Shown here one piece after another: positions 7,788-62,441 of a DNA stretch of 64,000 bases. This DNA is from an uncultured Candidatus Saccharibacteria bacterium (GTDB lineage Bacteria; Patescibacteriota; Doudnabacteria; UBA920): the NCBI GenBank assembly GCA_964532425.1, contig CAZHIA010000002.1:77945-141944 (forward strand), written 5' to 3'. Numbering within the stretch: the first letter of the stretch is position 1; each line of letters opens with the position of its first letter. The position numbers were made by a program, and so were the translations under genes. The notes under the pieces were generated by a model. The model saw nothing but the letters and a program-made list of their open reading frames with translations, made no database searches and was not told where the DNA came from.

Positions 7788-7954
7788 CATAATTGATCAA
7801 AATTGTAGTGCAGACCCCGTCACCTGGGACAGTGAACCAGGTAAAATTGTCTCGCATCACGCTAGACATTCTGTATTAGACCAGGTGACAAGGGTGTGGG
7901 TTACATGATTTATTTTTTTCTGAACATTTACGAACTAATTAGGCGTATTAGAAA

Positions 7955-16840: not shown

Positions 16841-17854
16841 TTGGTATATATGGACGAAATAAAAAAGGGTGAAATTGTTATTTATAAAGGTACGGAAGGT
16901 CTTGAATTGCAGGTGCGGATGGAGGGGGAGACGGTCTGGCTTACCCTGCAACAAATAGCCGATTTTTTTAAACGTGACAAATCTGTTATTTCTAGACATA
17001 TCAAAAATATCTTTAAATCATCTGAATTAAGCCAAAAATCAGTTGTTGCAAAAATTGCAACAACTGCAAAAGATGGAAAAACTTACCAGGTAGAGTACTA
17101 TAATTTGGACATGGTTATTTCGGTTGGTTACCGGGTTAATTCAACGCGGGCCACCCAGTTCCGCGTATGGGCTACACAGACACTGCGAAATTATTTGCTG
17201 AAAGGCTATGTGGTCAACGAGCAGCGGCTCAAGCAGCTCGAAACCGAACATGTTCATTTGAAGGAATTGGAGCAGGCTAACCAGCTGTTTGTACAGGTGA
17301 TCGAATCCCAGCGCGCTGAAGGGTATGAGAAGGAACTGCTCAAGATTATCATCGACTACACCAATACCTGGTTCGTGCTCAACCAGTATGACAAAGGCGA
17401 GCTGGCAGTGGCGGATGTTAGTAAAAAGAAAGCTGCGGCGCTGGATTACGAACAGGTTATGAAATCGATAGAAAAATTCAAGCAGCGGCTCGGGGCCCGA
17501 AAAGAAGCGGGAGACCTGTTCGGCCAGGAAGTGGGGGAGAAGCTCAAGGCCGTGCTCGGAAGTATCAACCAAACCTATGGCGGCAAGGACCTGTATCCGT
17601 CGCTGGAAGAAAAAGCGGCCCACCTCTTATATTTCTGTATAAAAGACCATCCATTCGCGGATGGTAATAAACGCATTGGCAGTCTGTTGTTTTTGCTCTT
17701 CTTAATCGAAAATCATGCGCTTACCAACCGTCGCGGAGAACGAAAGATCAATGACAGTGCCTTGGCGGCCTTGGCTTTGTTAATAGCTGAGAGTCAGCCT
17801 GAGCAGAAAGAGGTCATGGTAAAGTTGGTAGTGAACTTGATAAATAAACGATAG
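16841..17854 (+). CDS. RhuM-family N-terminal domain fused to Fic/Doc-type domain (HPFADGNKR motif)
   Basis: 337 aa. The N-terminus 'IVIYKGTEGLELQVRMEGETVWLTLQQIADFFKRDKSVISRHIKNIF' has the RhuM-family signature. The C-terminus 'HPFADGNKRIGSLLF' has the Fic/Doc catalytic motif. Confidence 0.75.
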   Translation: MVYMDEIKKGEIVIYKGTEGLELQVRMEGETVWLTLQQIADFFKRDKSVISRHIKNIFKSSELSQKSVVAKIATTAKDGKTYQVEYYNLDMVISVGYRVNSTRATQFRVWATQTLRNYLLKGYVVNEQRLKQLETEHVHLKELEQANQLFVQVIESQRAEGYEKELLKIIIDYTNTWFVLNQYDKGELAVADVSKKKAAALDYEQVMKSIEKFKQRLGARKEAGDLFGQEVGEKLKAVLGSINQTYGGKDLYPSLEEKAAHLLYFCIKDHPFADGNKRIGSLLFLLFLIENHALTNRRGERKINDSALAALALLIAESQPEQKEVMVKLVVNLINKR

Positions 17855-17864
17855 TCGGTTGTCC

Positions 17865-17995
17865 TCTGGAATATCTCGGATCTACAAAACTACAAATGAA
17901 TCCGAATCTACAAATACATACAAACCCCGTAAGTGGAATTTGTAGGTATTTGTAGATCTGTAGCTTATTCGTAGATTTGTAGTATAATTTGTATA
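17865..17995. repeat. Palindromic array of TCTACAAA / TTTGTAGA words
   Basis: At least four direct 'CTACAAA' words are followed by at least five inverted 'TTTGTAG' words. Together they form a long imperfect hairpin between the Fic gene and the 18020 ORF. Confidence 0.7.
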
Positions 17996-28284: not shown

Positions 28285-28405
28285 TAAGATACGGATATGC
28301 GGATAGGTACGGATGATACGGATAATACTGATGTTTTCTATCCGTATTCATCCGTATCATCAGTATTCAGATCCGTATATCAGTATCATATTATAGAACC
28401 TCCAA
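28285..28405. promoter_or_regulatory. Divergent uvrB/ruvA control region: ~110-bp imperfect palindrome built from TACGGAT/ATCCGTA and ATACTGAT/ATCAGTAT words
   Basis: The left arm carries four TACGGAT words plus ACTGATG. The right arm carries four ATCCGTA words plus CATCAGTA. Together they form a long inverted repeat between two DNA-repair genes. Confidence 0.55.
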
Positions 28406-29559: not shown

Positions 29560-30588
29560 ATGAATCTAATCTTATTAGAAGAGAAAGACAAAAAAATATA
29601 CAACGGCTTTGTTGCCCAGCAAACCAGCGGATCGTTTCTACAAAGTTGGGAGTGGGGGGAGTGGCAAGAGGTTTTGGGCAGGGAAGTAAAGAGGTTCAGT
29701 TTTCAGGATAAAAGCGGGGAAATGGCCGGGGTGGTGCAATTAGTCCGTATGCCGCTGGGGCTGGGGAGGTTTTATTGGTATGCGCCGTATGGACCGATAT
29801 TAAATTCAAAATTTAAAATTCAAAATTTAAAATTGCTACTGAAGGATGTATTTGGAGGAGCGGTATTTATCAGAATTGAGCCAACAGTAGACGAATCTTT
29901 AATTTTAAATCTTAAATCTTTAAATAAGTCAGTAAACATCCAGCCTGCTAAGACATTAGTTGTTGATCTCGCGAAGCCTGATGATCAGCTGTTGTCAGAG
30001 ATGCACGCCAAGACCCGGTACAACATCAAACTGGCGCAGCGGCATGGGGTCCTGGTAGAGGATGAATTTGCCGTTTCCGCCGGGCATGGCCTGTATTTTG
30101 ACGAAGCACTGCAGTTGATTATGGAGACCGCCTCGCGCCAGCAGTTCGTTACCCACGGGCTGGAGTACTACAAACAAATGGTTGATTTTTTTGCGCTTCA
30201 GAAACGCGGAGAATTGAAATTGCATATTTACAAATCAGTCTATAAAAAGCAATTGCTTTCCGCCGCCATTATGATCGATTTTGGCAGCACGCGGACCTAT
30301 TTGTTTGGCGGATCAAGCCATGAGCATAAAGAGGTAATGGCTCCGTATGCCTTGCACTGGCAGGCCGTTCGCGATGCGCGGGCAGCCGGGCTAACCCGAT
30401 ACGATTTTTGGGGGATCGAGACCGCATCCGGCGAAACACCGGGGTTTGTACGGTTCAAATTGGGTTTTGGCGGGCAGCAGTATGAGTATCCGGGTGCATA
30501 CGATCTGGTTCTGCAGCCGTTGTTGTACCGCATGTATGGTATAATGAGGGCAGGGAACAGACTCATGAGACATAGAAACAGACATTAA
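29560..30588 (+). CDS. FemAB-family peptidoglycan bridge-forming aminoacyltransferase
   Basis: About 340 aa. The motifs 'GFVAQQTSGSFLQSWEWGEW', 'KTRYNIKLAQRHGV' and 'FKLGFGGQQYEYPGAYD' match Fem/MurM-type transferases. An AT-rich in-frame repeat at 29795-29830 encodes 'KFKIQNLKL'. Confidence 0.6.
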   Translation: MNLILLEEKDKKIYNGFVAQQTSGSFLQSWEWGEWQEVLGREVKRFSFQDKSGEMAGVVQLVRMPLGLGRFYWYAPYGPILNSKFKIQNLKLLLKDVFGGAVFIRIEPTVDESLILNLKSLNKSVNIQPAKTLVVDLAKPDDQLLSEMHAKTRYNIKLAQRHGVLVEDEFAVSAGHGLYFDEALQLIMETASRQQFVTHGLEYYKQMVDFFALQKRGELKLHIYKSVYKKQLLSAAIMIDFGSTRTYLFGGSSHEHKEVMAPYALHWQAVRDARAAGLTRYDFWGIETASGETPGFVRFKLGFGGQQYEYPGAYDLVLQPLLYRMYGIMRAGNRLMRHRNRH

Positions 30589-30692
30589 TTGACAAAAATG
30601 ACAAAATTGAACAAAAATGACAAAAATAGATTGCAGCTGGGCGTTCAAATTTTGTCAATTTTGTCATTTTTTTAATTTTTGTCATTTCTCTT
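30589..30692. repeat. Palindromic TGACAAAA-word element, copy 1
   Basis: Four TGA(C/A)AAAA words are followed by a central 'TTGCAGCTGG' and then four inverted TTTTGTCA words. A near-identical element lies at 38063-38160. Confidence 0.75.
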
Positions 30693-31442
30693 ATGCTTTT
30701 CAACAAACAAAAATCCAAAAAGCCGGCATTCTTCGTTCCTGACGGGCAGTCCATTCCGACTTCCGAATTGGAGAAACACGAGAAGGTCTACCATCGCAAG
30801 ATCAAAGAGACTTCGCCATGGACGATTTTCGAAATAATCAGCGAGTTCGTTCGCGGATTTGATTTTCTTCGTCGTTACAAGAAAGCAGTATCATTTTACG
30901 GAACGGCCCGATCTGGGTTTAGCCAGGATATTTATCGCGAAGCCACGGAACTGGCCTTCAAATTGTCCAAAGCTGGCTTTGCCATCATTTCCGGTGGCGG
31001 CCCGGGTATAATGGAAGCGGCAAACAAGGGCGCGTTCGATGCGGGCGGGCACAGCGTGGGCATTAATATTCGCCTGCCGAATGAGCAGCGCACCAATCCG
31101 TACGTGACCGAGTCGGAAAGCTTTTCGTTCTTTTTTACGCGCAAGGTCATGCTGGAGTTTGCCTCTCACATCTACATCTTCTTCCCCGGCGGTTTTGGTA
31201 CTTTGGATGAATTATTTGAGATGGTGACCTTGATCCAGACCAAAAAGACCAAGCCAATTCCTATCATCCTTGTTGGCAGGAAATTCTGGACCCCATTGCT
31301 GGAATGGATCGAAAAGACCGTTTGTGAAGAGAATCATGCCATTGACCCGGAAGATATGGAAATTTATCATCTCGTCGATACTGCAGAAGAAGCATACGAT
31401 TATATAAAGAAGATTTCGAAGGATAAACATTTGTTCAACTGA
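30693..31442 (+). CDS. LOG-family protein (TIGR00730 Rossmann-fold nucleotide-binding, cytokinin riboside 5'-monophosphate phosphoribohydrolase-like)
   Basis: '[11 protein letters not shown]', '[17 protein letters not shown]' and '[12 protein letters not shown]' are LOG-family signatures. Confidence 0.8.
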
Positions 31443-31462
31443 CCACCCTTTGGGTGGTCATC
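31441..31462. terminator. Hairpin TGACCACCC TTTG GGTGGTCA
   Basis: Perfect stem immediately after the LOG gene stop. Confidence 0.5.
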
Positions 31463-31494
31463 CCGGACCTCGATCCGGGATCCAGGTTACGGAA

Positions 31495-31530
31495 AACTAC
31501 AAAAAAATACCCGCAGCAAGAGCTGCGGGT
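31495..31530 (-). terminator. Terminator for minus-strand gene (AATACCCGCAGC...GCTGCGGGTATT + T-run on minus)
   Basis: Perfect inverted repeat preceded on the + strand by AAAAAAA. Confidence 0.6.
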
Positions 31531-31583
31531 ATTAAAATTCCTCCACGGGGACCACGGGGACCATGGAGGAATTTTGGATTGGG

Positions 31584-32033
31584 TTATCTGCCCGCATCCA
31601 GTAACGGCTGGATTCGCTCGAGCAGAGCGGGAAAAGTATTGGTAGCGAGTTCTAAAAATAAACCGAGGTTTTTCCTCACGCGGGCCACGTTCTTCATCTC
31701 AAACGCTACTGCGCCGCGCTTGGTGCTGTATACTTGTTCGTTCTCGGTGGTTTGAGTGAACTGACACTCGGCATTGACTCTCAATGAGGAAGATCCCCAG
31801 GAAACAGGTTCTATTACGAGCACCCATTTGCAGTCCTCATTTTCGAGCTCTTTCGTCACTGGTTTTAAACTCCGAGAGTCGTAGTTTTTTGGGAGGTGGG
31901 CGCGCAGGTCCCGTTCTGTGGTTAAACTGAGGGTGGTGCTTGTAACCAGCTCAATCTCGTGGCGCATCCGGTTGATGTTGGGAGAACCGACCACTATTTC
32001 ATCGGCCATGTAGTCAAACTTCGTCTTTCCCAT
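31584..32033 (-). CDS. Hypothetical protein
   Basis: 149 aa with a strong RBS (GGAGGAAATAT upstream of the ATG on the minus strand). Confidence 0.5.
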   Translation of the reverse strand: MGKTKFDYMADEIVVGSPNINRMRHEIELVTSTTLSLTTERDLRAHLPKNYDSRSLKPVTKELENEDCKWVLVIEPVSWGSSSLRVNAECQFTQTTENEQVYSTKRGAVAFEMKNVARVRKNLGLFLELATNTFPALLERIQPLLDAGR

Positions 32034-32262
32034 ATTTCCTCCTTTTTCAGAGACCCTTTCGGGTTTGCCTTTTCAGGCATGTCTGGCTTTCCAGACACCT
32101 TATTTAAGCATTATTATCCAGAACATTCAAGGGGAGGGCTGGTCATTTATGGGGTGGGTGAATAGGATAAAGAGTTGAATGGGGGAGATGGGGAAAAGAG
32201 ACAAATTAAAACCCTCTCGCGAGAGAGGGTTTAACTATAAGCTATAACCTGCTACCTATAAG

Positions 32263-34866
32263 CTATTTCATTACCAGCTTCCCGTCCACCAAATCGATCA
32301 CCGCGCTGGTGCCGCGGGTAAGGCGGCGGGAGAGGAGGAGTTTGGCCAAAAAGCCTTCAACGTGGTCCTGGATGTAGCGGCGAATGGGACGTGCGCCGAG
32401 CGTCGGATCAAATGCATTGCTGGCAATGTCTGCCAGGACGCTTTGGGAGAACTCGATCTTGACGCCTTTGTCGTGCATCTGCTGGCGCAGGTATTGGAGC
32501 TGGAGATAGGCAATGCGCTGAACTTCTTGCTGGTTGAGCGGCGAAAACAGGATGACGCCGTCAAAGCGGTTTAAGAGTTCCGGCGGATACTTGGTAGTCA
32601 GGACCGTGTTGAATAGCTCGGTTTTGATTTGATCCAGTGTCTTACCGGCTTTAATGCCTGCCTGAATCTCGAGTGTACCGGCGTTGCTGGTGGCTATGAT
32701 CATGGCATGGGTCAGGTCTAGCGTATCACCCCTGCCGGAGGTCAGGCGTCCGTCTTCAAGAATTTGTAAAAATAGATTCAGCACTTCGGGGCTGGCCTTT
32801 TCAAACTCATCGCAGAGCAGAAGACAGAACGGATAGTTTTTTAGGTGCTGGACCAGCGGCGTGTCTGTCTCGCTTTCGGCGGAGCCGAGTAGTTTATTTA
32901 AACCTCCTTCTCCGCGATACTCGGACATGTCGAGCCTCAGTAGGAATTTTTCTTCGCCAAAGTACGTTCGGGCAAGTGTCTTCGCTAATTCGGTCTTGCC
33001 GACGCCGGTGGGGCCTAAAAATAGAAACGAGGCGACGGGGCGGTTTCCCGAAGCGAGTCCTGAGCGGGAGCGGCGCAAGCCTTCGGCGACCGCTTCCACA
33101 GCCTGGCGTTGGCCGACGACGTATTTACCGATCTCCTCTTCGAGTTTGAGCAGTTTTTCCGCTTCTGTCTCCGTAAAGGTCTCGGCAGGAATATGGGTGC
33201 GGTCACTGATTATTTTCTGGATTACTTCCGTCGTGATGGGCTTGCCTTTGTCCGCGGAATTTTTCATTCTGTGAGCGGCTTCCACTAAAACGCTAATGGC
33301 TTTCTGCGGCTGGCCCGTGTCTTTAAGATAGACGTCGGTAAGATTCACTGCTTGTTCAATGGCATGGTAATCAAAAAAACAGTGGTTTTGGGATTCCAGA
33401 AGGGAAGCCCTTATGCAACTGGCTAGCAGCACACCGGCGCGTCCAAGATCTTGGAGCTCGTAGCTGGTAAAGATTTGGTCGAAATTAGCTGCCGGGTGCA
33501 AATAATCAGTGTAGTCCTCAAGCGTGGTGGTGCCGATAACCAGCAGGGTGCCTTGTTCGAGGAAATTAACAAGGAGATCTAACAAACTTAAGCCTTCGGT
33601 GGTCTGCGCGCGCGCAAGTTGGGTAAGGTCCTCGATGACTACCACGATATTGCCGGCGCGGACCGCTTCGGTCAGGACCTCGCTGAACACTTCTTCCGCT
33701 TTGCTGGGAGTGCCCATAATGCCGGAAATTTCCAGCTTGACCAGACGCTTGTCCTGGAGTCCGGCCGGAACCTGCTCAGTGGCCATCTTGTAAGCAAGCT
33801 CATTGACCAGCGTGGTGCGGCCGGTGCCCTCGGCTCCCTTAATCACCAGGTTTTGCAGGCCTCCGTTCATCAACTTAAAGATTTCAGTCAAGTCGTTTTG
33901 CCGTCCGAGTGCGACCGGAAGCTGACCGTACTTGGCAGCCATGGTCAGATCTTGGCTGAAGTTATCCAAAAAGTGGGTAGGAACAGAGGTAAAACCGCGG
34001 TTGATTTCGTCATCAGGTTTGTATTTTGCCAATTTTTCAAAGAGGCGCAACTGCTCGCGCAATAGCCGTACGTTAAAGCCCCAGCTAGCCAGAATTTCCA
34101 ACTTTTCCAGGGTTAGGTCAATATTGAAGAAAACATCCTGAATAATGTGGCCGTCAGGCAAATCGATGCTCAGCGCGCAGAGCAGCATAAGCGGGTCAAT
34201 AACCGGGTTGTGGAGTTTGAGGCTTTCGGTAAAGGCGAGAAAAGGAATGCGGTCGAGCGGCAGGTTGGTCTGGGCATTGCTGTTAATCTTCAGATAATTA
34301 CCAACGAACGTTTTGATGTCTGTGGCGGAAACGCCAAGGCGGAGGAAAAGCAGTTGGACAGTATCATGGGAGAGCAGGGACAGGAATAGGTCACAGACGC
34401 CTGGTTGGTCTGCTCCGCGCTTGCGCGCCAGATGGAAGCTATAGTCCCAGCAGTGTTTGGCTGCGCTATCGAACGCCGCGTAGACATCGTGCTCGGTATT
34501 GGAAGTGTCGGCGATAGTGGTTACATTTACCTCTTGCCGGCTGGCTTGTTCGTGCTGCATGTCCGCCCAGAAATAAAGGGCAGCAAGCAGCCCTATCCAT
34601 ACACCGAGCATGAGAAAATTATGTTCCAACAGGAACCAGTAACGGTGAGCGGGGAGAGCCTGATAGGTAGCGTAGGCGAGGCTCAAGCAGCCAAGCAAGA
34701 CCAGCAGCAGCGCAGCGGAACGGATGGTTATGGCAAATATCCTGGTCGATCGGCGCGCAGCGACGCTGCTCAAATGCAGCGAGCCGGTAAATTCTAAAGC
34801 TTGGCCGTTGTAATCGGCGGCGAGAGGCCAGGCACCCGTGCTGGGTTTGTATTGAAGTTCGGCCAT
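32263..34866 (-). CDS. Membrane-anchored Clp/Hsp100-family double-AAA+ ATPase (ClpB/ClpC-like) with atypical D1
   Basis: 867 aa with two N-terminal TM helices. D1 reads 'GAEGTGRTT', so the Walker A lysine is replaced by Arg. D2 is canonical ('GPTGVGKTE', and 'DEFEKA' is the Walker B). The sensor-2 region reads 'RRYIQDHVE'. Confidence 0.8.
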   Translation of the reverse strand: MAELQYKPSTGAWPLAADYNGQALEFTGSLHLSSVAARRSTRIFAITIRSAALLLVLLGCLSLAYATYQALPAHRYWFLLEHNFLMLGVWIGLLAALYFWADMQHEQASRQEVNVTTIADTSNTEHDVYAAFDSAAKHCWDYSFHLARKRGADQPGVCDLFLSLLSHDTVQLLFLRLGVSATDIKTFVGNYLKINSNAQTNLPLDRIPFLAFTESLKLHNPVIDPLMLLCALSIDLPDGHIIQDVFFNIDLTLEKLEILASWGFNVRLLREQLRLFEKLAKYKPDDEINRGFTSVPTHFLDNFSQDLTMAAKYGQLPVALGRQNDLTEIFKLMNGGLQNLVIKGAEGTGRTTLVNELAYKMATEQVPAGLQDKRLVKLEISGIMGTPSKAEEVFSEVLTEAVRAGNIVVVIEDLTQLARAQTTEGLSLLDLLVNFLEQGTLLVIGTTTLEDYTDYLHPAANFDQIFTSYELQDLGRAGVLLASCIRASLLESQNHCFFDYHAIEQAVNLTDVYLKDTGQPQKAISVLVEAAHRMKNSADKGKPITTEVIQKIISDRTHIPAETFTETEAEKLLKLEEEIGKYVVGQRQAVEAVAEGLRRSRSGLASGNRPVASFLFLGPTGVGKTELAKTLARTYFGEEKFLLRLDMSEYRGEGGLNKLLGSAESETDTPLVQHLKNYPFCLLLCDEFEKASPEVLNLFLQILEDGRLTSGRGDTLDLTHAMIIATSNAGTLEIQAGIKAGKTLDQIKTELFNTVLTTKYPPELLNRFDGVILFSPLNQQEVQRIAYLQLQYLRQQMHDKGVKIEFSQSVLADIASNAFDPTLGARPIRRYIQDHVEGFLAKLLLSRRLTRGTSAVIDLVDGKLVMK

Positions 34867-34871
34867 ATGCG

Positions 34872-35249
34872 CTATATCGGAAACAGTTGATAAATGATCA
34901 TAATAATTGCTGCAGGAAAAACGATAAGGTAGAGCAGGAAGCCAAGGCTTACCCAGAGGAATCGCAGGGAAAAGACGCCCAGCTTAAAAACGAGCAGGAC
35001 TGGGCGGAGGAACATGGCCATGATCATGCCTGACTTGGTATAGTCGCCGAACATCGGCTCTTTCCAATGTTTGGCGAAAATGAGTAATCCGGTGCGGTGG
35101 AGCGACAAGCGAATGGATCGCGAAGCCCAATCGCTCACGAGGCGAACACCCGTGGTGTACCACCACAGGGGAAAGGTCAAAAGATTGAAGGGTAGATTTC
35201 CCATGTATTTTAGTTTCTGGAGAAGTTTTTGAGTAATTCTATTATACAA
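34872..35249 (-). CDS. Hypothetical membrane protein (co-oriented upstream of Clp-like gene)
   Basis: 125 aa with 3-4 TM segments. It is separated from the Clp-like gene by 5 nt. Confidence 0.45.
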   Translation of the reverse strand: MYNRITQKLLQKLKYMGNLPFNLLTFPLWWYTTGVRLVSDWASRSIRLSLHRTGLLIFAKHWKEPMFGDYTKSGMIMAMFLRPVLLVFKLGVFSLRFLWVSLGFLLYLIVFPAAIIMIIYQLFPI

Positions 35250-35467
35250 TTATTTTACGAATTCTCCAAACAGCAAGTCAAGCTTCGGTGTACGTTATTC
35301 GGCAGAGCGGCGCGTATCGGAGCATGGTAGTCGGCTCGCGGCCGTTAACCGTCAGAAGTCAATCGATATGCGCGGCGCTGCCGTAAACCGCAAGCCGGAT
35401 TTTCAGGTGCCAAAGAGCTCCTTTGGCATGCTTCCTTGTCTCCCGTGTTATACGGTATACTAAGAAC

Positions 35468-36796
35468 ATGGAATTTATCAAAAAACTCTTTCCCTCCAAA
35501 CTGTTAAAATGGCTTCGCCCGCAGTATCATGGCCTGGTTGCAAATCTGGCCAATGTTTATTTTGGCCGACCGTCTCAGCGGCTGATCGTCATTGGCGTAA
35601 CCGGGACGAACGGCAAAAGCACGACCGTTAATCTGATTGCGCGAATTCTGGAAGCGGCCGGTTACAAGGTCGGTTATACGTCCACGGTCAATTATAAAAT
35701 TTCCGGCACCGAACAGCTCAATACTTTAAAAATGACCATGCCATCGGGGTGGTTATTGCAGAAGTGGATGAAGCAAATGGCGGACGCGGGCTGCCAGTAT
35801 GCCATATTGGAAATTTCCAGCGAAGGCCTGGTTCAGAACCGGCATTTGGGCATTCAGTTTGATGTTGCGGTGTTTACCAACCTGACTCCTGAGCATATTG
35901 AATCGCACGGCGGGTTTGAGAATTACAAAGCAGCTAAGGGCAAGTTGTTTGAAGCAGTCAGTGAGTTTCAGGTTTCAAGGGAAAAGTTAAAAGTTAATCC
36001 AGCCTTGAAAAAGACCGTTGTAACGAATGCGGATGATGAACATGCGGAATTCTATGCATCGTTTCCGGCCGATGTTCATTTGACGTATGGGATAGAAAAA
36101 CCAGCTGATTACCGTGCATCGGATATCGAGTATTCACCGCAAGGAATCTCCTATAAGCTGAAAGCTATAACCTATAACCTTCAGCTGAAGGGTTTATTCG
36201 ATGTCTATAACTCTTTGGCTGCCATAGCCACAGCGGAAGCGATGGGGATCAGTCTGCCAGTCAGCCAAGCGGCATTGCAGGCGGTACCGGTCGTACCGGG
36301 ACGGATGGAAGTGCTGCAGCAGCGTCCGTATACCGTTCTGGTTGATTATGCGCCGGAGCCGTATTCGCTCCGCGCCTTGTATGGCACAATCCAGCATTGG
36401 CCAAAGCACCGGCTTATCCATATTTTGGGCAGCACCGGCGGCGGGCGGGATCGCGGTCGCAGGGAAATTTTGGGACAGATGGCGGGTGAGACGGCTGATA
36501 TCGTAATTGTGACCAATGAGGATCCGTATGATGATGATCCTTTGGAAATTATCGACGAGGTGGCAGCAGGAGCACTCGAGAAAGGGAAGATATTAGATCA
36601 GAACTTGTATAAAGTCCCGGACCGCCGCGCGGCTATTGCCAAGGCAGTACAGATGGCGCGCGAGGATGACCTGCTCTTAGTGACCGGTAAGGGGTCGGAA
36701 CAAAAAATGGCCGTTGCCCATGGCCGGTATATTGATTGGGATGATAGAAAAGTTATTCAGCAAGAACTGAAAAAACATTTGACCATTAACATGTGA
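35468..36796 (+). CDS. Mur ligase family protein (MurE-like UDP-N-acetylmuramoyl-tripeptide ligase)
   Basis: 'VIGVTGTNGKSTT' is the P-loop of the Mur ligase central domain. The size fits MurE or MurT. The ORF track begins at 35423, but the likely start is the Met at 35468. Confidence 0.7.
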   Translation: MEFIKKLFPSKLLKWLRPQYHGLVANLANVYFGRPSQRLIVIGVTGTNGKSTTVNLIARILEAAGYKVGYTSTVNYKISGTEQLNTLKMTMPSGWLLQKWMKQMADAGCQYAILEISSEGLVQNRHLGIQFDVAVFTNLTPEHIESHGGFENYKAAKGKLFEAVSEFQVSREKLKVNPALKKTVVTNADDEHAEFYASFPADVHLTYGIEKPADYRASDIEYSPQGISYKLKAITYNLQLKGLFDVYNSLAAIATAEAMGISLPVSQAALQAVPVVPGRMEVLQQRPYTVLVDYAPEPYSLRALYGTIQHWPKHRLIHILGSTGGGRDRGRREILGQMAGETADIVIVTNEDPYDDDPLEIIDEVAAGALEKGKILDQNLYKVPDRRAAIAKAVQMAREDDLLLVTGKGSEQKMAVAHGRYIDWDDRKVIQQELKKHLTINM

Positions 36797-36846
36797 CCGC
36801 TTGCAAATGAGTCAAATGTCAAAGGTTAAATGTTAAATGTAATTCT

Positions 36847-37182
36847 ATGATTCTTTTTATCGATTCTACCGACTATCAAAGCGTGATGTATGCGGCTGCC
36901 GGAGAAAAGTTTATCGAGCACCGTTTCCCCATTGATCCGCACGAAAGCCATAAGGCGCTCAAAGATTTGGAAGGATTTCTGAAAAAGAACCGCATCGGCC
37001 GGGACACGCTGCAAGAGATTGTCGTCTGTTCCGGCCCAGGCAGTTACACCGGCGTGCGCGTCGGGCTAGCGCATGCCAAGGCGCTGGGGTTGGCTTGGAG
37101 TGTAAAGGTAACCGAGCTCGAGAAAAAGAAATTTGATATAAAAATGGGCAAGACTGCAAAGACGATCGTTGTAAAGAAATAA
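36847..37182 (+). CDS. tsaB: TsaB/YeaZ-like protein (short form)
   Basis: 111 aa. 'ILFIDSTDYQSV...GPGSYTGVRVGLAHAKALGLA' matches the N-terminal half of TsaB. The C-terminal half is absent. Confidence 0.55.
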   Translation: MILFIDSTDYQSVMYAAAGEKFIEHRFPIDPHESHKALKDLEGFLKKNRIGRDTLQEIVVCSGPGSYTGVRVGLAHAKALGLAWSVKVTELEKKKFDIKMGKTAKTIVVKK

Positions 37183-37295
37183 GCCGTTTATTATCCTGGA
37201 TTTTGTAGGGGACGGTCGAGACCGTCCCGTATCCGAAGGTGCATGTTACAAAAGACTCCCCTGTGTATACACAGGGGAGTCTTTTGTAATGACTG

Positions 37296-38048
37296 CTATT
37301 CTTCTTTTAGCTTGAACACCCGGACCACGATGGCCAGCAGCAGGGCCAGCCACAACGCGATGATTGCCATGTCCTTGCCGATCACTTGCAGGTTAAAGGG
37401 GTACAGGTAGGCCTGCCGGAAGCCGTCTGCCAGGTAAGTGATGGGCAGGAGCTTGGCGATGATTTGGAGCGGGTGGGGGAGAACGGATATCGAATAAAAA
37501 ATGTTAGTCAAAAACAGTAGCGGCATACCAATGGCAGAGGTGACCGGGGCAGCTGTTTCATAAGATTTTGCATAGTTGGCAATCAGCAAGCCGATCAGGA
37601 GGAAGATGGGACCGCCGAGTAGGATCAGAAATAGAATAGAGAGGATGTTGCCGGCGAACTTGGCGTGGAAAAAGACGACGCCGATGAGGGTCAGGAGAAT
37701 GACCTGGAGAACCATCTGTACCAGCCGGGACGCGATGAGGCTCATTATAAGCTGCCGGGTGTTGATCGGAGTGACAAGTAGACGCTTGATGACCCCTTGG
37801 GACTTCATATCAATCATCCAGTAAGCTAGGCCGTAGATGCCGCCCTGCATGATGCCCATGGCAATAATGCCGGGTAACAAAAAGTCGCTGTAGCGGGCTT
37901 CGTTCGTGTTCACGAATCTTCCAACCGGGAGCATCGAGACCGCAATGTAAATAAATCCCGGCATAGCCACGGTCCAAAAGAACCCGGACTTATTGCGGTA
38001 GAGGATCTTGATATTGGCGAGGAAAAGCTGGGAGAAAGAGGACTTCAT
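37296..38048 (-). CDS. ABC-2 type transporter permease
   Basis: About 250 aa with 6 TM helices. The ORF track extends the start into the palindromic repeat. The likely start is at 38048 ('MKSSFSQLF'). Confidence 0.7.
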   Translation of the reverse strand: MKSSFSQLFLANIKILYRNKSGFFWTVAMPGFIYIAVSMLPVGRFVNTNEARYSDFLLPGIIAMGIMQGGIYGLAYWMIDMKSQGVIKRLLVTPINTRQLIMSLIASRLVQMVLQVILLTLIGVVFFHAKFAGNILSILFLILLGGPIFLLIGLLIANYAKSYETAAPVTSAIGMPLLFLTNIFYSISVLPHPLQIIAKLLPITYLADGFRQAYLYPFNLQVIGKDMAIIALWLALLLAIVVRVFKLKEE

Positions 38049-38062
38049 AAAAGGAATTGAAC

Positions 38063-38160
38063 AAAATTTAAAAAATTGACAAAATTGACAAAAATAAACT
38101 GCAGCTTGGTTTCCTAATTTTGTCAATTTTGTTCAATTTTGTCATTTTTGTCAATTAGTT
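38063..38160. repeat. Palindromic TGACAAAA-word element, copy 2 (inside the ABC operon between ATPase stop and permease start)
   Basis: 'attgacaaaattgacaaaaataaaCTGCAGCTTGGtttcctaattttgtcaattttgttcaattttgtcatttttgtcaatt' has the same architecture and central core as the element at 30589-30692. Confidence 0.75.
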
Positions 38161-39100
38161 AGTCTTCATACTCATGCCCCGTGAGCTGCAAATAAACGTC
38201 TTCGAGGCTGGCGGTGCGCACGGTGAAGCCGGAGAAGTTTACCTGGTGGTCCTTCAGGATTTGGACAATGCGGGAGATGTTGTCGAGGGTGGTTAGTTCA
38301 ATGGTAATGCGCGGTGGCTCGGGGTAGATCTTTTTTATATCTACGACTTCGGAAAACCAGGCAGGGTCCACGCTTTCTCCAGCCAGGAAGGTGACCTGGG
38401 TACAGTCAGTTAGGCGCTCAATCAGGGTCTTTGGCTGGTCGATTTCCAAAATTTTACCCTGGTCCAATATGGCCACGCGGTGACAGAGAAATTCGGCTTC
38501 TTCCATAAAATGGGTGGTCAGGACCACGGTCGTACCGCGGCTATTGATTTCTTTGATAAGTTTCCACATTTGGCGTCGGGCAGCCGGGTCCAGGCCGGTG
38601 GTGGGCTCATCCAGGAAAATTATTTCCGGCTCGTTGACGAGGGATGAAGCTATGGTAAAGCGCTGCTTCTGTCCGCCGGACAATTTGTCTACGCGTTCAT
38701 TCTTTTTATCAGTAAGATCGACCAGTTCAAGCAACCGGTCGCAGTCAGCCGATCTGCCGTAGAGGGAGGCGAATAAAGTCAGCAGTTCAGCGAGAGTCAG
38801 GTAGGGGAGATAGTCCGAGCTCTGCAATTGGACGCCGATACGGCGCCGAATTTCTTCGGCCTGTCGCAGATTGTCGAGGCCTAAGACATTGACCGTACCG
38901 GCGGACTGTTGTTTGATGCCCTCAATAATCTCCAGTGTTGTGGTCTTACCTGCGCCGTTCGGTCCTAGAATACCGAAGATCTCTCCCTTTTCCACGGAAA
39001 ATGAAATCCCTTTGACCGCCTCAAAAAATCGCTGCCCGCCCTTCGGCCGGCTCAGGCGGTAGGTCTTTTTCAGATCGGTGATGGTAATTACGTTAGGCAT
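38159..39100 (-). CDS. ABC transporter ATP-binding protein
   Basis: 'GPNGAGKTT' is the Walker A, 'LSGGQKQR' is the ABC signature, and 'IIFLDEPTTGLD' is the Walker B. Confidence 0.9.
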   Translation of the reverse strand: MPNVITITDLKKTYRLSRPKGGQRFFEAVKGISFSVEKGEIFGILGPNGAGKTTTLEIIEGIKQQSAGTVNVLGLDNLRQAEEIRRRIGVQLQSSDYLPYLTLAELLTLFASLYGRSADCDRLLELVDLTDKKNERVDKLSGGQKQRFTIASSLVNEPEIIFLDEPTTGLDPAARRQMWKLIKEINSRGTTVVLTTHFMEEAEFLCHRVAILDQGKILEIDQPKTLIERLTDCTQVTFLAGESVDPAWFSEVVDIKKIYPEPPRITIELTTLDNISRIVQILKDHQVNFSGFTVRTASLEDVYLQLTGHEYED

Positions 39101-39220: not shown

Positions 39221-39249
39221 TTGACAAAAGTACAGAAATAATGTATAAT
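39221..39249 (+). promoter_or_regulatory. Consensus sigma70 promoter TTGACA-17-TATAAT
   Basis: 'ttgacaaaagtacagaaataatgtataat'. Confidence 0.6.
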
Positions 39250-54059: not shown

Positions 54060-54140
54060 GGGTGAGTGAGGATGGGGGAAGATGTCAATAGGATTTATAG
54101 GACGAATAGGTTTGATAGGACATATGGGACTTAATAGGAT
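54060..54140. repeat. Phased ATAGGA-word repeat (period ~9-10 bp), copy 1
   Basis: 'aataggatttataggacgaataggtttgataggacatatgggacttaataggatg'. A homologous block lies at 56005-56100. Confidence 0.6.
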
Positions 54141-54332: not shown

Positions 54333-55661
54333 TTAGTATATTGCCGTGGCGATGTACGTGATGAGGTTCTGATACGTGCCTTGCGGTTGGGTGGCACCGA
54401 CCCTGACGCGGTAGGCGACATAGCCTTCGTCCCCGCTGGCCGGGGCATTGTTGGACATAATAGTGACCGAGCTGGAACTATTGAAGCCGGCGGAGTTAAA
54501 GGTTCTTCCCGAATCGTTGTAGTTGAAGGTCATGGTTGGGCTACCGGCCTTGGTCTGGAGGGCGTAGCCGAACCCGTTAGCGGCATTATTGTCCGCAGCT
54601 GTCACGTTGTAGTCGGAAATGACCGTGCCATTGGTCTTGCGCAGGGAGCCGTCGGACTGGGCCGTAACGATGTATCCGCTGTTGGAGTTGGTATCGATAT
54701 GGATGAACTGGGCAGCCGTACGGTTGGTGGATACGGTCAGTGTGCCCAAGGGAACCGTGGTGGCCGTGGTGGTCACATCCATGCTGGTACCGGCTACAGT
54801 CGTGCCGGAGTTAACCGGATTGATGGTGAATGTCAGGGTTGGGACGACCGTAGCCGTAGCGGAAACCGATTCAATGACACCAACCCTGCCGGTGGTGGTA
54901 TCGACTATGTTGCTGCTGCCGTCCTGCTCATCAACCTGGACCGCATAGGTGTCAGCCGTGCCTTGGACCGCGGTTTTGGTGGGGTTTAAAAGCTTGTTGG
55001 TGTTACCGATCGTGATGGTAATGGCAGTGGCGGCGGCAATAGTTCCGGTGAAAGGTACCGTAATAACCACGTTGGAGGCCGGGGAGGAGGTGGTAATGGT
55101 GCCAGCCGTACCGCCAGTGAGGGAGATGTCGCCCGCGGTAATGCCGTTAAAATCGAAGCCGCTTGCTCCAGGGATGCTATTATTGGCGCCAGTGCCGTCT
55201 CCGGGCATAGTAATGACAAATTTGCCTGCCGTGACCGCCGACCGGGTAGTGAATGTAATGGTATGTTTTGAAGTCATTTTCAGGTACAAATAACTAGTAC
55301 CTGAGGTGTAGGTCCCGGTCAAGCCGGTGGTCAGGTTTAGCTGGGTTACGCTGGGAATTGAAGCGATTACCCGGTTTTCAGAAGACGTACAGGTATTAGT
55401 GGTACACAGGGTTATGGTGTCGCCTTGGGCAAGGCCGAGCGTACTGCCAACCGTAATGGTCGTATCATTCGGGTTGCCATTGCCGCCAAAAGCCGTGGCT
55501 ACGCTTGGTCGGGAAGTAGACAGGGTGTCCTTGACGCTCGTGAGAGCGCCGACGGCATTCAGATTGAAAGGGTAGAGCAAGGCGGGTAAAATGAGCGCAA
55601 ACAGCAAAAATAGTATGCGCTTCGGCGCTGTTTTATTATGTAAGCGAACCAAAAAGTTCAT
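54333..55661 (-). CDS. Secreted Thr/Ser/Gly-rich β-rich surface protein, paralog A
   Basis: 442 aa. An N-terminal hydrophobic anchor or signal is followed by the conserved 'GALTSVKDTLSTSRPSV' motif. A conserved C-terminal strand reads 'YRVRVGATQPQGTYQNLITYIATAIY'. Confidence 0.8.
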   Translation of the reverse strand: MNFLVRLHNKTAPKRILFLLFALILPALLYPFNLNAVGALTSVKDTLSTSRPSVATAFGGNGNPNDTTITVGSTLGLAQGDTITLCTTNTCTSSENRVIASIPSVTQLNLTTGLTGTYTSGTSYLYLKMTSKHTITFTTRSAVTAGKFVITMPGDGTGANNSIPGASGFDFNGITAGDISLTGGTAGTITTSSPASNVVITVPFTGTIAAATAITITIGNTNKLLNPTKTAVQGTADTYAVQVDEQDGSSNIVDTTTGRVGVIESVSATATVVPTLTFTINPVNSGTTVAGTSMDVTTTATTVPLGTLTVSTNRTAAQFIHIDTNSNSGYIVTAQSDGSLRKTNGTVISDYNVTAADNNAANGFGYALQTKAGSPTMTFNYNDSGRTFNSAGFNSSSSVTIMSNNAPASGDEGYVAYRVRVGATQPQGTYQNLITYIATAIY

Positions 55662-56004: not shown

Positions 56005-56100
56005 TAAGATGAATAGGACATATGGAACGATTAGGACTGATAGGGCAAATAGGATGAATGGGTTGGATAGGATTGATAGGATAAATAGGTTAGTTGATAA
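56005..56100. repeat. Phased ATAGGA-word repeat, copy 2
   Basis: Homologous to 54060-54140 and part of the tandem-duplication unit. Confidence 0.6.
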
Positions 56101-56252: not shown

Positions 56253-57578
56253 TTAGTATATTGCCGTGGCGATGTAGGTAACCAGATTTTGGTAGGTGCC
56301 TTGTGGCTGGGTGGCGCCGACCCTGACGCGGTAAATTACATAGGATTCATCGCCTGAGGCTGGGCTGCCGTTTTGCATAATGGTTACCGGGGTGGAGCTG
56401 CTAAAACCCTTGGAGAAGAAGGTGCCACTGTCGTTATAATGGAATGCTGAAGGAGTATTGGTCTTGTCCTGGAGAGAATAGCCAAAGCCATTATTAGCAT
56501 TGTTGTCTGCCCCGGTCAGGTTGTAGTCTGAAATGACCGTGCCGTTGGTCTTCCGGAGGGAACCGTCGGACTGGGCTGTCACAATATACCCGCTGTTGGA
56601 GTTTGTGTCGATATGGATGAACTGGGCAGCCGTACGGTTGGTGTTGACGACCAGGTTGCCGAAAGGCACGGTGGTGGCTGTGGTGGCTACATCCGTGGTG
56701 GCGCCGGCAACTGCTGCGCTAGCCGCTACCGGGTTGATGGTAAAGGTGAAGGACGGGGTAACGGTTGCTGACACGGTGACCGGTTCGATGGTGCCCAGTG
56801 AGGCGGTAGTGGTATCAACCACATTACTGCTCGCGTCTTGTTCATCGATTTGTACGTTCGTAATATCAGCCGTGCCTTGGACCGCGGTTTTAGTGGGGTT
56901 GAGAATTCTGGCGGTGGTACCGATCGTAATGGTAATGGCGGTAGTGGCGGCAATGGTTCCGGTGAAGGGAATGGTAATGACCACATTAGAGGCTGGGGAG
57001 GAGGTTGCGATTGTGCCAGCCGTGCCTCCACCCAGGGTGATTTCAGCGGTTGTGATGCCGCCAAAGTCATACCCGTTCGCCCCAGGGATGCCGTTGTTTG
57101 GGCTGCCATCGCCTGGCAAGGTCACGACAAACTTGCCGCCCGTAACTGCTGAACGGGTAGTAAAGGTAATGGTGTGCTTTGAAGTAGCCTTATAGATGGC
57201 AAAGCTTGACGCGGTAAACGGGTTGGTGGTACCTGCCGTAAGTGCCAGTTGGGTCTGGCTTAAGATTGCGGCAACCGTGCGTGTCTCGGAGGTGGTACAA
57301 GCTGCGGTAGTACACAGCACTATGCTGTCATTTTGCACGATTCCATTGGTGTTAGCCACGGGAATAGTGGTGTCGCCGGCGCTGACCGACCCGGTAATAG
57401 CCGTGTACACGCTGGGGCGAGAAGTGGAAAGGGTATCTCGCAAGGAGGTGAGGGAACCTGCTGCATCTAGGCTGAACGAAGCTGGGATTAGGGCCATTAC
57501 TGTGAGGAACATGGTAATCGTAGCCAGCGAAAGCAGTTTTTTATTAGTTCTTGCTGCCTCTAAAAGAGACTGCCGCAT
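56253..57578 (-). CDS. Secreted Thr/Ser/Gly-rich surface protein, paralog B
   Basis: 441 aa. About 60-70% identical to paralog A, with the same N-terminal motif ('GSLTSLRDTLSTSRPSV') and C-terminal motif ('QNLVTYIATAIY'). Its 3' flank (terminator plus repeats) is about 90% identical to that of paralog A. Confidence 0.8.
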   Translation of the reverse strand: MRQSLLEAARTNKKLLSLATITMFLTVMALIPASFSLDAAGSLTSLRDTLSTSRPSVYTAITGSVSAGDTTIPVANTNGIVQNDSIVLCTTAACTTSETRTVAAILSQTQLALTAGTTNPFTASSFAIYKATSKHTITFTTRSAVTGGKFVVTLPGDGSPNNGIPGANGYDFGGITTAEITLGGGTAGTIATSSPASNVVITIPFTGTIAATTAITITIGTTARILNPTKTAVQGTADITNVQIDEQDASSNVVDTTTASLGTIEPVTVSATVTPSFTFTINPVAASAAVAGATTDVATTATTVPFGNLVVNTNRTAAQFIHIDTNSNSGYIVTAQSDGSLRKTNGTVISDYNLTGADNNANNGFGYSLQDKTNTPSAFHYNDSGTFFSKGFSSSTPVTIMQNGSPASGDESYVIYRVRVGATQPQGTYQNLVTYIATAIY

Positions 57579-57784: not shown

Positions 57785-59104
57785 TTAATATACCGGTGTG
57801 GCAATGTAGGTTACCAGGTTCTGGTATGCACCCTGCGGCTGGGAGGCATTGATCCTGACTCGGTAAGCGACATAGCCTTCGTCTCCGGTAGCCGGCGAGC
57901 TGTTGGACATGATGGTAACCGGACTAGTGCTGCTAAAACCAGCGGAGTTAAAGGTCCTTCCTGAATCATTGTAATTAAAGGTCATGGTCGGGCTGCCTGC
58001 TTTGGTCTGGAGCGCATAGCCAAACCCGTTGGTTGCATTATTGTCTGCTGCTGTTAGGTTAAAATCAGAAATGACCGCACCATTGGTCTTCCGGAGGGAG
58101 CCATCGGACTGGGCCGTGACGAAATAACCACTGTTGGAATTTGTATCGATGTGGATGTACTGGGCCGCCGTACGGTTGGTCGCCACGACCAGGTTTCCGA
58201 AGGGTACTGTGGTGGCTGTGGTGGTAACGTCCGTGTTGACCCCTGCAATCGTGGTCCCGGAGTTGACCGGATTGATGGTAAAGGTAAACGAGGGAACTAC
58301 AGAAGCGGAAATTGTTACCGGTTCAATGGTCCCGACTGAGACCGTGGTAGTATCCACCACGTTATTTCCACTGTCTTGCTCGTCGATTTGCACCGGGAAC
58401 GTGTCAGCCGTGCCTTGGGTAGAGGTCTTGGTTGGATTAAGCAGCATATTCGTATTGCCGACCGTGATGGTTATAGCGGTGGTGGCGTTGATCGTGCCGG
58501 TAAACGGGATGGTAATGACGACGTTGGAAGCCGGGGAGGAGGTAGTGATAGTGCCGGCAGTGCCTCCGGTTAAGGAAATGTCGGCGGCAGTGATTTTGTT
58601 AAAATCGAACCCGTTCAGCGCCGGGATGCTATTGTTCGGCCCGCCGGCATCTCCGGGCAAGGTGACCACAAACTTGCCGCCCGTCACTGCCGAGCGGGTG
58701 GTGAAGGTGATGGTATGTTTCGAAGCTGATTTTAAATAGACATTCCCGCCTCCGGCATAGCCATTGGCAGTACCAGTAGTCAGGCTGATCTGGGTATTAT
58801 TGGGGACAGAGCTGATCACTTTCGTTTCCGTAACCGTGCATCCCGCATTACAGAGCGTGATGGTGTCACCTTGCAGTAAGCCGACCGTGCTCGTAACGGT
58901 GATAGTGGTGTCGCCCAAGGTTACCGCGGACATGGGGGTGGCCACGCTTGGGCGCGAGGTTGACAGGCTGTCTTTTACCGTGGTCAGGGAACCGCTCGCG
59001 TTCAACTGAAAGGTGGCAGGGGTAAGAATAAAAACAATCATAATAATACTTATGATTGCCCATGAAAACAGCTTTTTCTGAAAGCTGGAGAAAAAATTCA
59101 CCAT
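57785..59104 (-). CDS. Secreted Thr/Ser/Gly-rich surface protein, paralog C
   Basis: 439 aa. Shares 'GSLTTVKDSLSTSRPSV' and the C-terminal 'YRVRINASQPQGAYQNLVTYIATPVY'. Confidence 0.8.
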   Translation of the reverse strand: MVNFFSSFQKKLFSWAIISIIMIVFILTPATFQLNASGSLTTVKDSLSTSRPSVATPMSAVTLGDTTITVTSTVGLLQGDTITLCNAGCTVTETKVISSVPNNTQISLTTGTANGYAGGGNVYLKSASKHTITFTTRSAVTGGKFVVTLPGDAGGPNNSIPALNGFDFNKITAADISLTGGTAGTITTSSPASNVVITIPFTGTINATTAITITVGNTNMLLNPTKTSTQGTADTFPVQIDEQDSGNNVVDTTTVSVGTIEPVTISASVVPSFTFTINPVNSGTTIAGVNTDVTTTATTVPFGNLVVATNRTAAQYIHIDTNSNSGYFVTAQSDGSLRKTNGAVISDFNLTAADNNATNGFGYALQTKAGSPTMTFNYNDSGRTFNSAGFSSTSPVTIMSNSSPATGDEGYVAYRVRINASQPQGAYQNLVTYIATPVY

Positions 59105-59878: not shown

Positions 59879-60078
59879 AGTTGGTATTTATATTTTAGCA
59901 TAAGTTAGTTGAAAACGTTCACCAAATAACATTTGGAAATACAATCGAAATGCAGTAGAAATATATAGAAATACAATTGTATTTCTACGGTATTTCCATC
60001 GTATTGCTATTGTATTTCTCTGTTCATTTTTCATTGCCTCCACACCCCGCCTATGATAAAGTAAACATAGATACGCCT

Positions 60079-62285: not shown

Positions 62286-62441
62286 TCCTGCAGTGTAGGG
62301 GCAGCCGATCCTGCCTGCCGGTCATCGACTCCGAGGCCGCCCAGACTCGAGGAGCAGGCAGGAGGCGCCGGCTTCTTAAAGCACCAAAAACAAATCTCAA
62401 ATTACAAACAATATCCAAATTTCAAATTCAAAATTCTGCAG
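62286..62441. repeat. ~155-bp direct repeat, copy 1 (GTAGGGGCAGCCGA + split CCTGCCTGCCGG...GCAGGCAGGAGG hairpin + AT-rich CAAAT words + TGCAG)
   Basis: About 90% identical to 63411-63568. Confidence 0.8.

Follow-up and report, generated by a model that had tools for sequence, protein, structure and literature searches.

Two palindromes at operon junctions of a Doudnabacteria contig belong to a dispersed, sequence-conserved repeat family of the candidate phyla radiation

We analysed two palindromic elements of ~100 nt in a 64,000-nt stretch of contig CAZHIA010000002.1 (hereafter the window), which comes from an uncultured Doudnabacteria-lineage bacterium of the candidate phyla radiation (CPR)/Patescibacteria. 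The two elements were found to be members of a sequence-conserved palindromic repeat family that is dispersed over unrelated loci in CPR/Patescibacteria. The family sat almost only between co-directional genes, where it filled the space from the stop codon of the upstream gene to 5–9 nt before the ATG of the downstream gene, and the element was absent from the same junctions in relatives. Judged from the sequences, the explanation that we favour, tentatively, is a dispersed palindromic element resembling the repetitive extragenic palindromic (REP) and enterobacterial repetitive intergenic consensus (ERIC) repeats, which would colonise operon junctions and form an intercistronic RNA hairpin.

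The original prediction had described two look-alike palindromes with a shared architecture and core, and both were located where it had placed them, with the same words and the same centre. Copy 2 starts at 38055 rather than at 38063, the first word having been missed, and the arms measured 36–40 nt instead of the proposed ~45 bp. Each palindrome consisted of a word arm, a 24-nt centre containing TGCAGCT(T)GG and an inverted-word arm (Table 1). The arms were composed of four words of 9–10 nt of the form (A/T)TGACAAAA, one being the variant TTGAACAAAA, and one of the four words of the inverted arm read TTTTTTAA(T/A) instead of TTTTGTCA. Taken as terminal inverted repeats, the arms were 34–42 nt long and 79% complementary. 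The window contained 14 matches to the core word TGACAAAA where 3.07 were expected, a count that was reached in 0/100 shuffles; 11 of these 14 matches were inside the two palindromes, and the other three were close to the expected number (3). The arms of copy 1 on the + strand were equivalent to those of copy 2 on the − strand, showing that both copies have the same arm polarity toward the downstream gene, with the two centres mutually flipped relative to the arms. With the family profile described below, both full copies scored higher in the gene-directed orientation.

In both window copies the upstream stop codon stood directly against the first word (TAA followed by TTGACAAAA) and the downstream ATG was 5–7 nt past the palindrome, with no Shine–Dalgarno (SD) motif before the ATG of the LOG or the permease gene. 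As had been claimed, copy 2 was inside an ABC transporter operon, between the ATPase and the permease genes. The permease was identical to a protein in NCBI, and its homologues at 60–68% identity were labelled Candidatus Doudnabacteria or Patescibacteria group. The claim that the element creates spurious open reading frame (ORF) extensions was also correct, since the 276-aa ORF at 37296–38126 is a spurious N-terminal extension of the permease through copy 2, and ORFs crossing the ~100-nt elements were only such extensions, as expected of non-coding DNA. The motif ATGAAG flanked copy 2 on both sides, a pattern that was not general among the copies; here it looks like a duplicated remnant of an ancestral overlapping junction.

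To describe the family, one genome per species was scanned with the pattern TGACAAAANTGACAAAAN{15,45}TTTTGTCA, giving at least 107 stretches, and a profile made from 14 copies was run on the window and the fetched loci. Taxon labels are those of the deposited metagenome-assembled genomes (MAGs). Among the matches listed, one group (group A) came only from CPR-labelled MAGs (Saccharibacteria, Doudnabacteria and 'Patescibacteria group') and had the word order of the window copies, the variant words and the central (C/T)TGCAG included. The profile detected at least ~45 further elements scoring ≥40 bits in ~20 CPR assemblies, with up to four per 8-kb block; the loci had been chosen for carrying the element, so these copy densities are biased upwards. 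A typical member, ~100 nt in length, had arms of four to five 9-nt words, (A/T)TGACAAAA on one side and the inverted form on the other, separated by a short centre in which (C/T)TGCAG was usual; TGCAG was the conserved central motif across the family. No recurrent gene family was found among the neighbours of the elements in the fetched CPR loci.

A second group (group B), again among the matches listed, had arms of 2–3 (C)TGACAAAA words on either side of a G+C-rich centre of 15–20 nt. Its site always adjoined the 3′ end of a DUF3987 (PF13148) gene, and a tyrosine integrase was often close by; its hosts were Proteobacteria, Acidobacteria, Planctomycetes, Deinococcota, Kribbella and others, not CPR (loci L004, L007, L011, L016, L028, L035, L042, L059, L070 and L084, and at least ~30 more). 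These arrays would be the origin-type iterons of an integrative element family. A link between the CPR elements and the DUF3987 mobile elements was rejected, as neither the CPR loci nor the window contained a DUF3987-like ORF. Three metagenome matches (L123–L125), which were A+T-rich, ORF-free, eukaryote-like direct repeats, were set aside as chance.

Further copies were also present in the window genome. Outside the window, 4.7 kb to its left, a third full copy stood against the stop codon of ruvB (L126 1–37), and a half copy inside the window supplied the final eight codons and the stop of polA, with the TGA at 7785–7787 in its third word. A second half element, with the A-rich arm only, was observed in another locus (L122 2384–2439), followed by a canonical G+C-rich terminator hairpin. 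Thus the resemblance of the two window palindromes was not due to chance, as originally argued, and they did not represent a locus-specific site, given extra copies in unrelated contexts both in the same genome and elsewhere in CPR.

The placement of the elements was then quantified. Gene calls in the loci were greedy ORFs (minimum 80–90 aa), so the gap statistics are approximate. Of 40 elements with gene calls on both sides, 37 were at co-directional junctions, three at convergent and none at divergent ones; with a second gene call, 34/37 were co-directional compared with a background of 72% (p 0.0025). Divergent regions held one element at most, although 23% of the non-coding bases were there. 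The 37 co-directional elements showed no preferred orientation (18 one way and 19 the other). When the element was removed in silico, a spacer of ≤8 nt was left in 22/36 cases, whereas just 21% of element-free co-directional junctions were ≤30 nt, and such tight junctions made up 0.8% of the non-coding bases. The ATG was 5–9 nt beyond the end of the palindrome in 21/30 cases, and the upstream stop codon was against the first word or within it, as TGA. A census of the 60–220-nt intergenic regions of ~40 CPR loci gave 26 word palindromes, distributed as 23/129 co-directional, 3/31 convergent and 0/22 divergent regions. Eleven of them used other words, and all eleven spanned stop to ATG or the reverse-strand equivalents. 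Sliding minimum-free-energy and ungapped hairpin scans were uninformative, because they favoured G+C-rich sequence and missed indels. A translated mini-ORF across the element that couples stop to start would fit two copies in one locus (L022); this idea was dropped since the stop-to-start distance modulo 3 showed no preference (15/9/9).

Synteny around both window copies was kept in relatives, which allowed the same junctions to be compared. The empty-site comparison that had originally been suggested was positive for both copies: the ATPase–permease junction was empty in three relatives and the FemAB–LOG junction in two (Table 1). No TGACAAAA-family match was detected in any of the relative loci (L109–L119 and L128–L130). 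At the same orthologous junction, other relatives carried palindromes of similar length built from unrelated words. This was also the case elsewhere: a TGACAAAA element in L093 (6121–6219) was matched in the collinear L089 (~2790–2900) by a TACGAA/TTCGTA palindrome of equal length. Moreover, a metagenomic contig (L120 805–991) contained a GAAAT/ATTTC word palindrome nested in a TGACAAAA element, right after its CTGCAG. Thus the TGACAAAA family is one of several 'word-palindrome' families that use the same gene junctions in different relatives, and the nesting, taken with the differing families per junction, suggests that elements insert into palindromes already in place, whose older arms are then lost.

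Table 1. Positions of the window elements, their neighbouring genes and the corresponding junctions in relatives (window positions, or locus positions where a locus is named)
Feature	Position	Strand	Details
Copy 1	30587-30690	+	profile 96.7 bits on +, 61.1 on -
Copy 1, A-rich arm	30589-30625	+	words in the next row
Copy 1, words	30589-30597; 30598-30606; 30607-30616; 30617-30625		TTGACAAAA; ATGACAAAA; TTGAACAAAA; ATGACAAAA
Copy 1, centre ATAGATTGCAGCTGGGCGTTCAAA	30626-30649	+	includes TTGCAGCTGG at 30631-30640
Copy 1, T-rich arm TTTTGTCAATTTTGTCATTTTTTTAATTTTTGTCAT	30650-30685	+	inverted words TTTTGTCAA / TTTTGTCAT / TTTTTTAAT / TTTTGTCAT
Copy 2	38055-38157	-	profile 83.5 bits on -, 54.8 on +
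Copy 2, words	38057-38093		inverted words 38118-38154
Copy 2, centre ATAAACTGCAGCTTGGTTTCCTAA	38094-38117	+	includes CTGCAGCTTGG at 38099-38109
FemAB-family gene, upstream of copy 1	29560-30588	+	PF02388, E 4e-43; stop TAA 30586-30588
LOG/TIGR00730 gene, downstream of copy 1	30693-31442	+	ATG 30693
ABC transporter ATPase, upstream of copy 2	38159-39100	-	PF00005, E 6e-31; stop TAA 38161-38159
ABC-2 permease, 250 aa, downstream of copy 2	37296-38048	-	ATG 38048-38046
Half copy (A-rich arm and TGCAG centre, no T-rich arm)	7763-7816 (profile search 7760-7816)	+	20.5 bits, E 1.5e-4
ATPase–permease junction, L110			empty; genes overlap by 14 nt
ATPase–permease junction, L112 / L113			empty; gap 4 nt
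ATPase–permease junction, L114	9912-10000		89-nt palindrome, ATTTC/GAAAT words
ATPase–permease junction, L117	~9880-9995		~95-nt palindrome, ACGCnAAT/ATTnGCGT words
ATPase–permease junction, L109	809-946		138 nt of ATCCCGGAA/TTCCGGGAT palindromes
ATPase–permease junction, L119			PDDEXK_3 gene inserted
FemAB–LOG junction, L128			empty; 4 nt
FemAB–LOG junction, L130			empty; 6 nt
FemAB–LOG junction, L129	5542-5799		other palindromes over 258 nt (GGAGAG/CTCTCC words), plus two further CTGCAG-centred palindromes (TAACTGCAACTGCAGTTA)

For both copies and on either strand, the predicted fold was a single long A-U-rich hairpin (−27 to −30 kcal/mol, with z between −4.2 and −4.9), and over 43 copies 82% of the positions formed canonical pairs compared with 47–72% in shifted registers. 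The stem was A-T-rich and 35–40 bp long, and no canonical intrinsic terminator (a short G+C-rich stem plus a T run) was predicted in either window element. We propose that a non-autonomous, REP/ERIC-like selfish element colonises tight operon junctions, and that it may spread without creating a target-site duplication (TSD), either by hairpin- or single-stranded-DNA-directed insertion or by entry into a resident palindrome whose old arms are then lost. In the polycistronic mRNA, the arms would pair to form an A-U-rich hairpin of 35–40 bp that loops out, and its base would bring the stop codon, and any SD motif in the last upstream codons, beside the downstream ATG, so that translation of the downstream gene would survive the insertion. 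This geometry would explain why translationally coupled junctions tolerate a 100-nt insertion only in a flush position. In empty-site relatives, the SD motif of the permease was within the end of the ATPase gene; among the elements, 35% had an SD-like motif within the 15 nt that end the upstream ORF, compared with 14% at long gaps (p 0.048), and 0/20 had one between the element and the downstream ATG. The hairpin would also be a candidate intercistronic processing or stability site (e.g. for RNase III) or an exonuclease barrier, and its processing could free the level of one cistron from that of the other, a role suggested by the known biology of the REP, ERIC and Correia repeats. A putative attenuator or RNA-stability function, as originally put forward, is plausible.

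Several results weigh against this explanation. The first set concerns mobility. No TSD was found, the flanks matching over a mean of 0.92 nt in 39 copies compared with 1.18 (S.D. 0.20) for permuted flanks. No transposase, and no autonomous partner with the same ends, was detected in ~1 Mb of loci; transposase, Y1_Tnp/RAYT and Nop/Tas genes were absent from the 28 window proteins scanned. A tblastn search with IS200/IS608 TnpA queries, which is a weak test, gave no match in any locus (~1 Mb). Neither viral contigs nor phage or plasmid collections contained copies, and the plasmid and phage collections likewise gave nothing for a 161-nt stretch over copy 1 (window 30560–30720), so a viral, phage or plasmid origin was rejected. 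Within-genome identity was no higher than between-genome identity (75.5% vs 74.8%, permutation p 0.27), and genome-specific subfamilies were rejected on the same test. Elements at orthologous positions were 84.7% identical where the flanking coding sequence was 57–78% identical (L089/L093), and 95% where it was 59–96% (L040/L104). Such figures fit a constrained element and poorly fit recent selfish bursts; the conservation between orthologues suits an element under constraint or constant renewal better than mere junk DNA. Thus the proposal of a mobile element similar to a miniature inverted-repeat transposable element (MITE) stood in part. The elements were <600 bp and non-coding, had terminal inverted repeats, occupied many unrelated sites and were missing from these sites in relatives, whereas the lack of a TSD rules out strict MITE membership and no transposase or autonomous partner was seen in the ~1 Mb of loci.

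The second set concerns the hairpin itself. In the profile orientation, the T-rich arm (TTTTTGTCAnTTTTGTCATTTtTTTAATTTTTGTCATT) was 90–100% conserved per column across genomes, the non-complementary third word TTTTTTAAT included, and the 36-nt T-rich arm was identical in window copy 1, L021, L029, L089 and L093. Words 3–4 of the other arm were variable, and the centre carried the conserved palindromic hexamer CTGCAG. Compensatory changes were not above those of the shifted-register controls, as the variation was mostly one-sided and pair-breaking; RNAalifold gave no consensus structure for the family, and sense and antisense folding were equal whatever the orientation. The SD enrichment described above was marginal and based on crude gene calls. 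The conservation of the arm therefore seems to point to sequence-specific recognition beyond a mere hairpin, implying that some protein, a mobilising enzyme or a host factor, recognises the sequence of one arm and CTGCAG. The hairpin model leaves this conservation unexplained, and so a reading at the level of DNA keeps substantial weight.

According to that reading, the 9-bp words would be iteron-like duplex sites for a conserved CPR DNA-binding protein, and the potential to form a hairpin would be a by-product. We regard it as unlikely, though as the strongest of the alternatives. Candidate proteins would be an enzyme that moves the element (transposase or recombinase), a protein of the nucleoid or of partition, and region 4 of sigma-70, as TTGACA is the −35 of this organism; a putative arm-binding protein would recognise TTTTGTCAnTTTTGTCATTTTTTTAATTTTTGTCA. 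It is the primary sequence rather than the pairing that is conserved, the arm asymmetry goes with the element rather than with gene direction, and the centre holds the palindromic CTGCAG, all as this alternative would have it. The same 8-mers in a period-9 inverted layout occur beside DUF3987 genes in many phyla, presumably as initiator-binding iterons, and an isolated TTGACAAAA (39221) provides the −35 hexamer of a canonical promoter (window 39221–39249; TTGACA, 17 nt, TATAAT), upstream of the gene at 39324 (+). The repeat word is therefore equal to the −35 element of the organism. However, neither the flush run from stop to ATG nor the avoidance of divergent and long intergenic regions is explained by protein binding, no candidate protein was found near the elements, and the presence of quite different word families at the same junctions is odd for a specific binding protein.

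A further alternative is that the element is a portable internal promoter, in which the tandem words would form TTGACA, 17–18 nt and (A/C)AAAAT, each arm would fire inward, and the stop-side arm would drive the downstream gene. Promoter-like combinations (TTGACA, 17–18 nt, AAAAAT/CAAAAT, 9–10/12 matched) pointed inward from both arms on both strands; they were above expectation (4 vs 0.9 expected and 2 vs 0.6 expected), and the best (10/12) faced LOG and the permease. The promoters of the organism itself are sigma-70-like, and the lack of an SD motif before the downstream ATGs would suit a distinct, short-leader transcript. On the other hand, the matches were made by the words themselves, the −10-like hexamers being just AAAAAT or CAAAAT, which arise automatically from an A-rich repeat. 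Both orientations were equally common (18:19) despite the unlike arms, antisense transcription of the upstream gene would be expected from the mirror arm, and other-word families without TTGACA occupied the same positions. A promoter function is thus improbable, and the suggestion that TTGCAG serves as a −35 hexamer found no support; the only promoter-like matches came from TTGACA in the words.

We consider it more doubtful still that the palindromes are made in place, without mobility, by slippage that expands a short word and template switching (quasi-palindrome correction) that copies the arm. Many junctions did carry palindromes of locus-specific words, orthologous junctions differed in their words with both arms changed complementarily, and no TSD was present, as such a process would predict. 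It cannot, however, account for the TGACAAAA family, in which a 36-nt arm with a variant third word was identical across genomes and unrelated loci and the order of the variant words was conserved, nor for the nested copy (L120). Finally, a DNA uptake signal for natural transformation, spread and conserved by biased uptake and homologous recombination, would suit the absence of an orientation preference, the cross-species conservation above that of flanking DNA, the absence of a detected TSD or transposase and the natural competence reported for Saccharibacteria (PMC10187176), but it is very improbable, as known uptake sequences are single 9–12-nt motifs at ~1 per kb that also occur within genes, whereas these elements measure ~100 nt and lie only at gene junctions, and the word was not enriched outside them (3 vs 3 expected).

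The preferred reading, a REP/ERIC-like element at operon junctions, can be extended into a broader and speculative scenario, which we think unlikely as a whole. CPR/Patescibacteria may contain a superfamily of TSD-less tandem-word palindromes, of which the TGACAAAA family would be one, that home to operon junctions or to the centres of palindromes already there, replace each other at 'hot' junctions and act as operon punctuation. Their hairpins, flush with the stop and start codons, would be cut to give short-leader, SD-less mRNAs, as in mitochondrial tRNA punctuation, and the mobilising or maintaining enzyme would recognise one arm and the central CTGCAG.

Other features of the window and its relatives were recorded alongside. 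The window held further tandem-word palindromes at ~17890–17985, 28287–28389, 59936–60019, 62388–62459 and 63516–63606, with the words CTACAAA/TTTGTAG, GATACGGAT/ATCCGTAT, a GAATACAAT type of period 11, and, in two related copies, CAAAT.../ATTTG... with a central TGCAG. Unlike the TGACAAAA family, three of these palindromes were in promoter-side or divergent regions. A perfect palindrome with 25-nt arms (TTACAAAAGACTCCCCTGTGTATAC and its complement) at 37246–37289 separates the convergent TsaD and permease genes and probably serves them as a bidirectional terminator. Three tandem paralogues of ~440 aa without a Pfam match (54333–55661, 56253–57578 and 57785–59104) were each associated with direct AATAGGAT-type word arrays (54087–54140 and 56032–56089). 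A RhuM/Fic-domain gene was present both in the window (16850–17854) and in a relative (L117 19204–20220), in different neighbourhoods. In L119, a PDDEXK_3 gene stood between the ATPase and permease genes (4341–4778) and a 23S_rRNA_IVP-family gene between the TsaD and Mur ligase genes (6004–6348); the junction behind the PDDEXK_3 gene held three direct ATCTGTGTT words. Logan contigs of the organism stopped at palindromes of any kind (L001, L126 and L127; window 30597, 37243 and 62362). The contig break within copy 1 is therefore an assembly artefact, and its use as a sign of repetition was withdrawn.

Much of bacterial diversity belongs to the CPR, yet the non-coding DNA of these bacteria is almost unstudied. 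A conserved ~100-nt repeat placed exactly between cistrons in many CPR lineages is an annotation marker, producing false N-terminal extensions and providing stop codons; it is also a likely cause of assembly breaks and a handle on within-operon expression tuning in reduced genomes. Its tandem-word arms, flush stop-to-start placement, cross-lineage conservation in CPR and replacement by other word families are unusual for intergenic palindromic repeats. Together with the absence of a TSD and of any transposase in the loci examined, the flush geometry and the word-family replacement could point to a new mechanism of insertion or maintenance.

We compared the elements with known systems. In Rfam 15, no window sequence matched at the gathering score, and in E-value mode the matches were just generic miRNA-precursor hairpin models at 17–25 bits, compared with gathering scores of 54–249. 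The searched literature held no description of these elements and no occurrence of their word dimers, and the family is apparently undescribed.

Among systems that share parts of its architecture, the DUF3987 arrays have the same 8-mer TGACAAAA, a 9-bp period and a direct-then-inverted layout around a 15–20-nt centre, but they differ in having a single site per element, with 2–3 words in each arm and a centre rich in G+C, and in occurring outside CPR; the shared word may be an effect of the choice of search pattern. TIGR arrays consist of two alternating repeats with variable 9-nt spacers in 36-nt units, repeated 5–15 times beside a Nop-domain tas gene (PMC12045711; bioRxiv 10.64898/2026.09.09.750476). 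Like the present elements, they are common in CPR, have ~9-nt units and in some variants form palindromic stem-loops, whereas the elements described here are isolated single palindromes between housekeeping genes. With uniform words, inverted halves, no variable spacers and no tas gene or Nop domain in the scanned proteins, TIGR-Tas identity was rejected. Integron attC sites are imperfect palindromes of 57–141 nt that are flush between co-oriented ORFs and keep their structure while the sequence differs. The flush position and the conserved unpaired bases are shared with attC, but the genes flanking the CPR elements are core genes rather than cassettes, with no array and no integrase. The core sites RYYYAAC / GTTRRRY were unmatched, the ends being AATTGAC / GTCAATT (5/7 each by eye), and attC was rejected.

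Correia/NEMIS of Neisseria and RUP and BOX of pneumococcus are MITEs, and Correia hairpins are RNase III substrates. The CPR elements are likewise small and non-coding, with terminal inverted repeats and many copies, and can sit between genes that are presumably co-transcribed; they differ in having no detectable TSD, no parent insertion sequence that could be found, and within-genome copies that are not more alike than between-genome copies. REP, bacterial interspersed mosaic elements (BIMEs) and REPINs (REP doublets forming hairpins) are mobilised by RAYT (Y1/HUH) transposases and affect mRNA stability inside operons (malEFG). They share with the CPR elements an extragenic location, a long hairpin from inverted doublets, species- or clade-specific families, the absence of a TSD and exclusion from promoter regions. 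However, no RAYT gene was seen in ~1 Mb of loci (a weak test), a conserved 5′ GTAG-type tetranucleotide was absent from the elements, and the arm is a tandem array of one 9-nt word instead of a single 20–40-nt palindromic unit. ERIC sequences, or intergenic repeat units (IRUs), are ~127-bp imperfect palindromes of enterobacteria, present in multiple copies in transcribed intergenic regions, including operons, and no transposase is known to be associated with them. The CPR elements resemble them as imperfect, non-coding, multi-copy palindromes of ~100–130 nt that occur across related genera or lineages in either orientation, and are ERIC-like by position only (34–37 co-directional, 2–3 convergent and 0–1 divergent; 18 forward to 19 reverse). 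No sequence similarity to ERIC is known; unlike ERIC, the CPR elements have arms of tandem 9-nt words, run flush from stop to ATG, and belong to several word families that replace each other at one junction. In behaviour, ERIC/IRU, REP/BIME/REPIN and the Correia-type MITEs are the closest relatives of the family.

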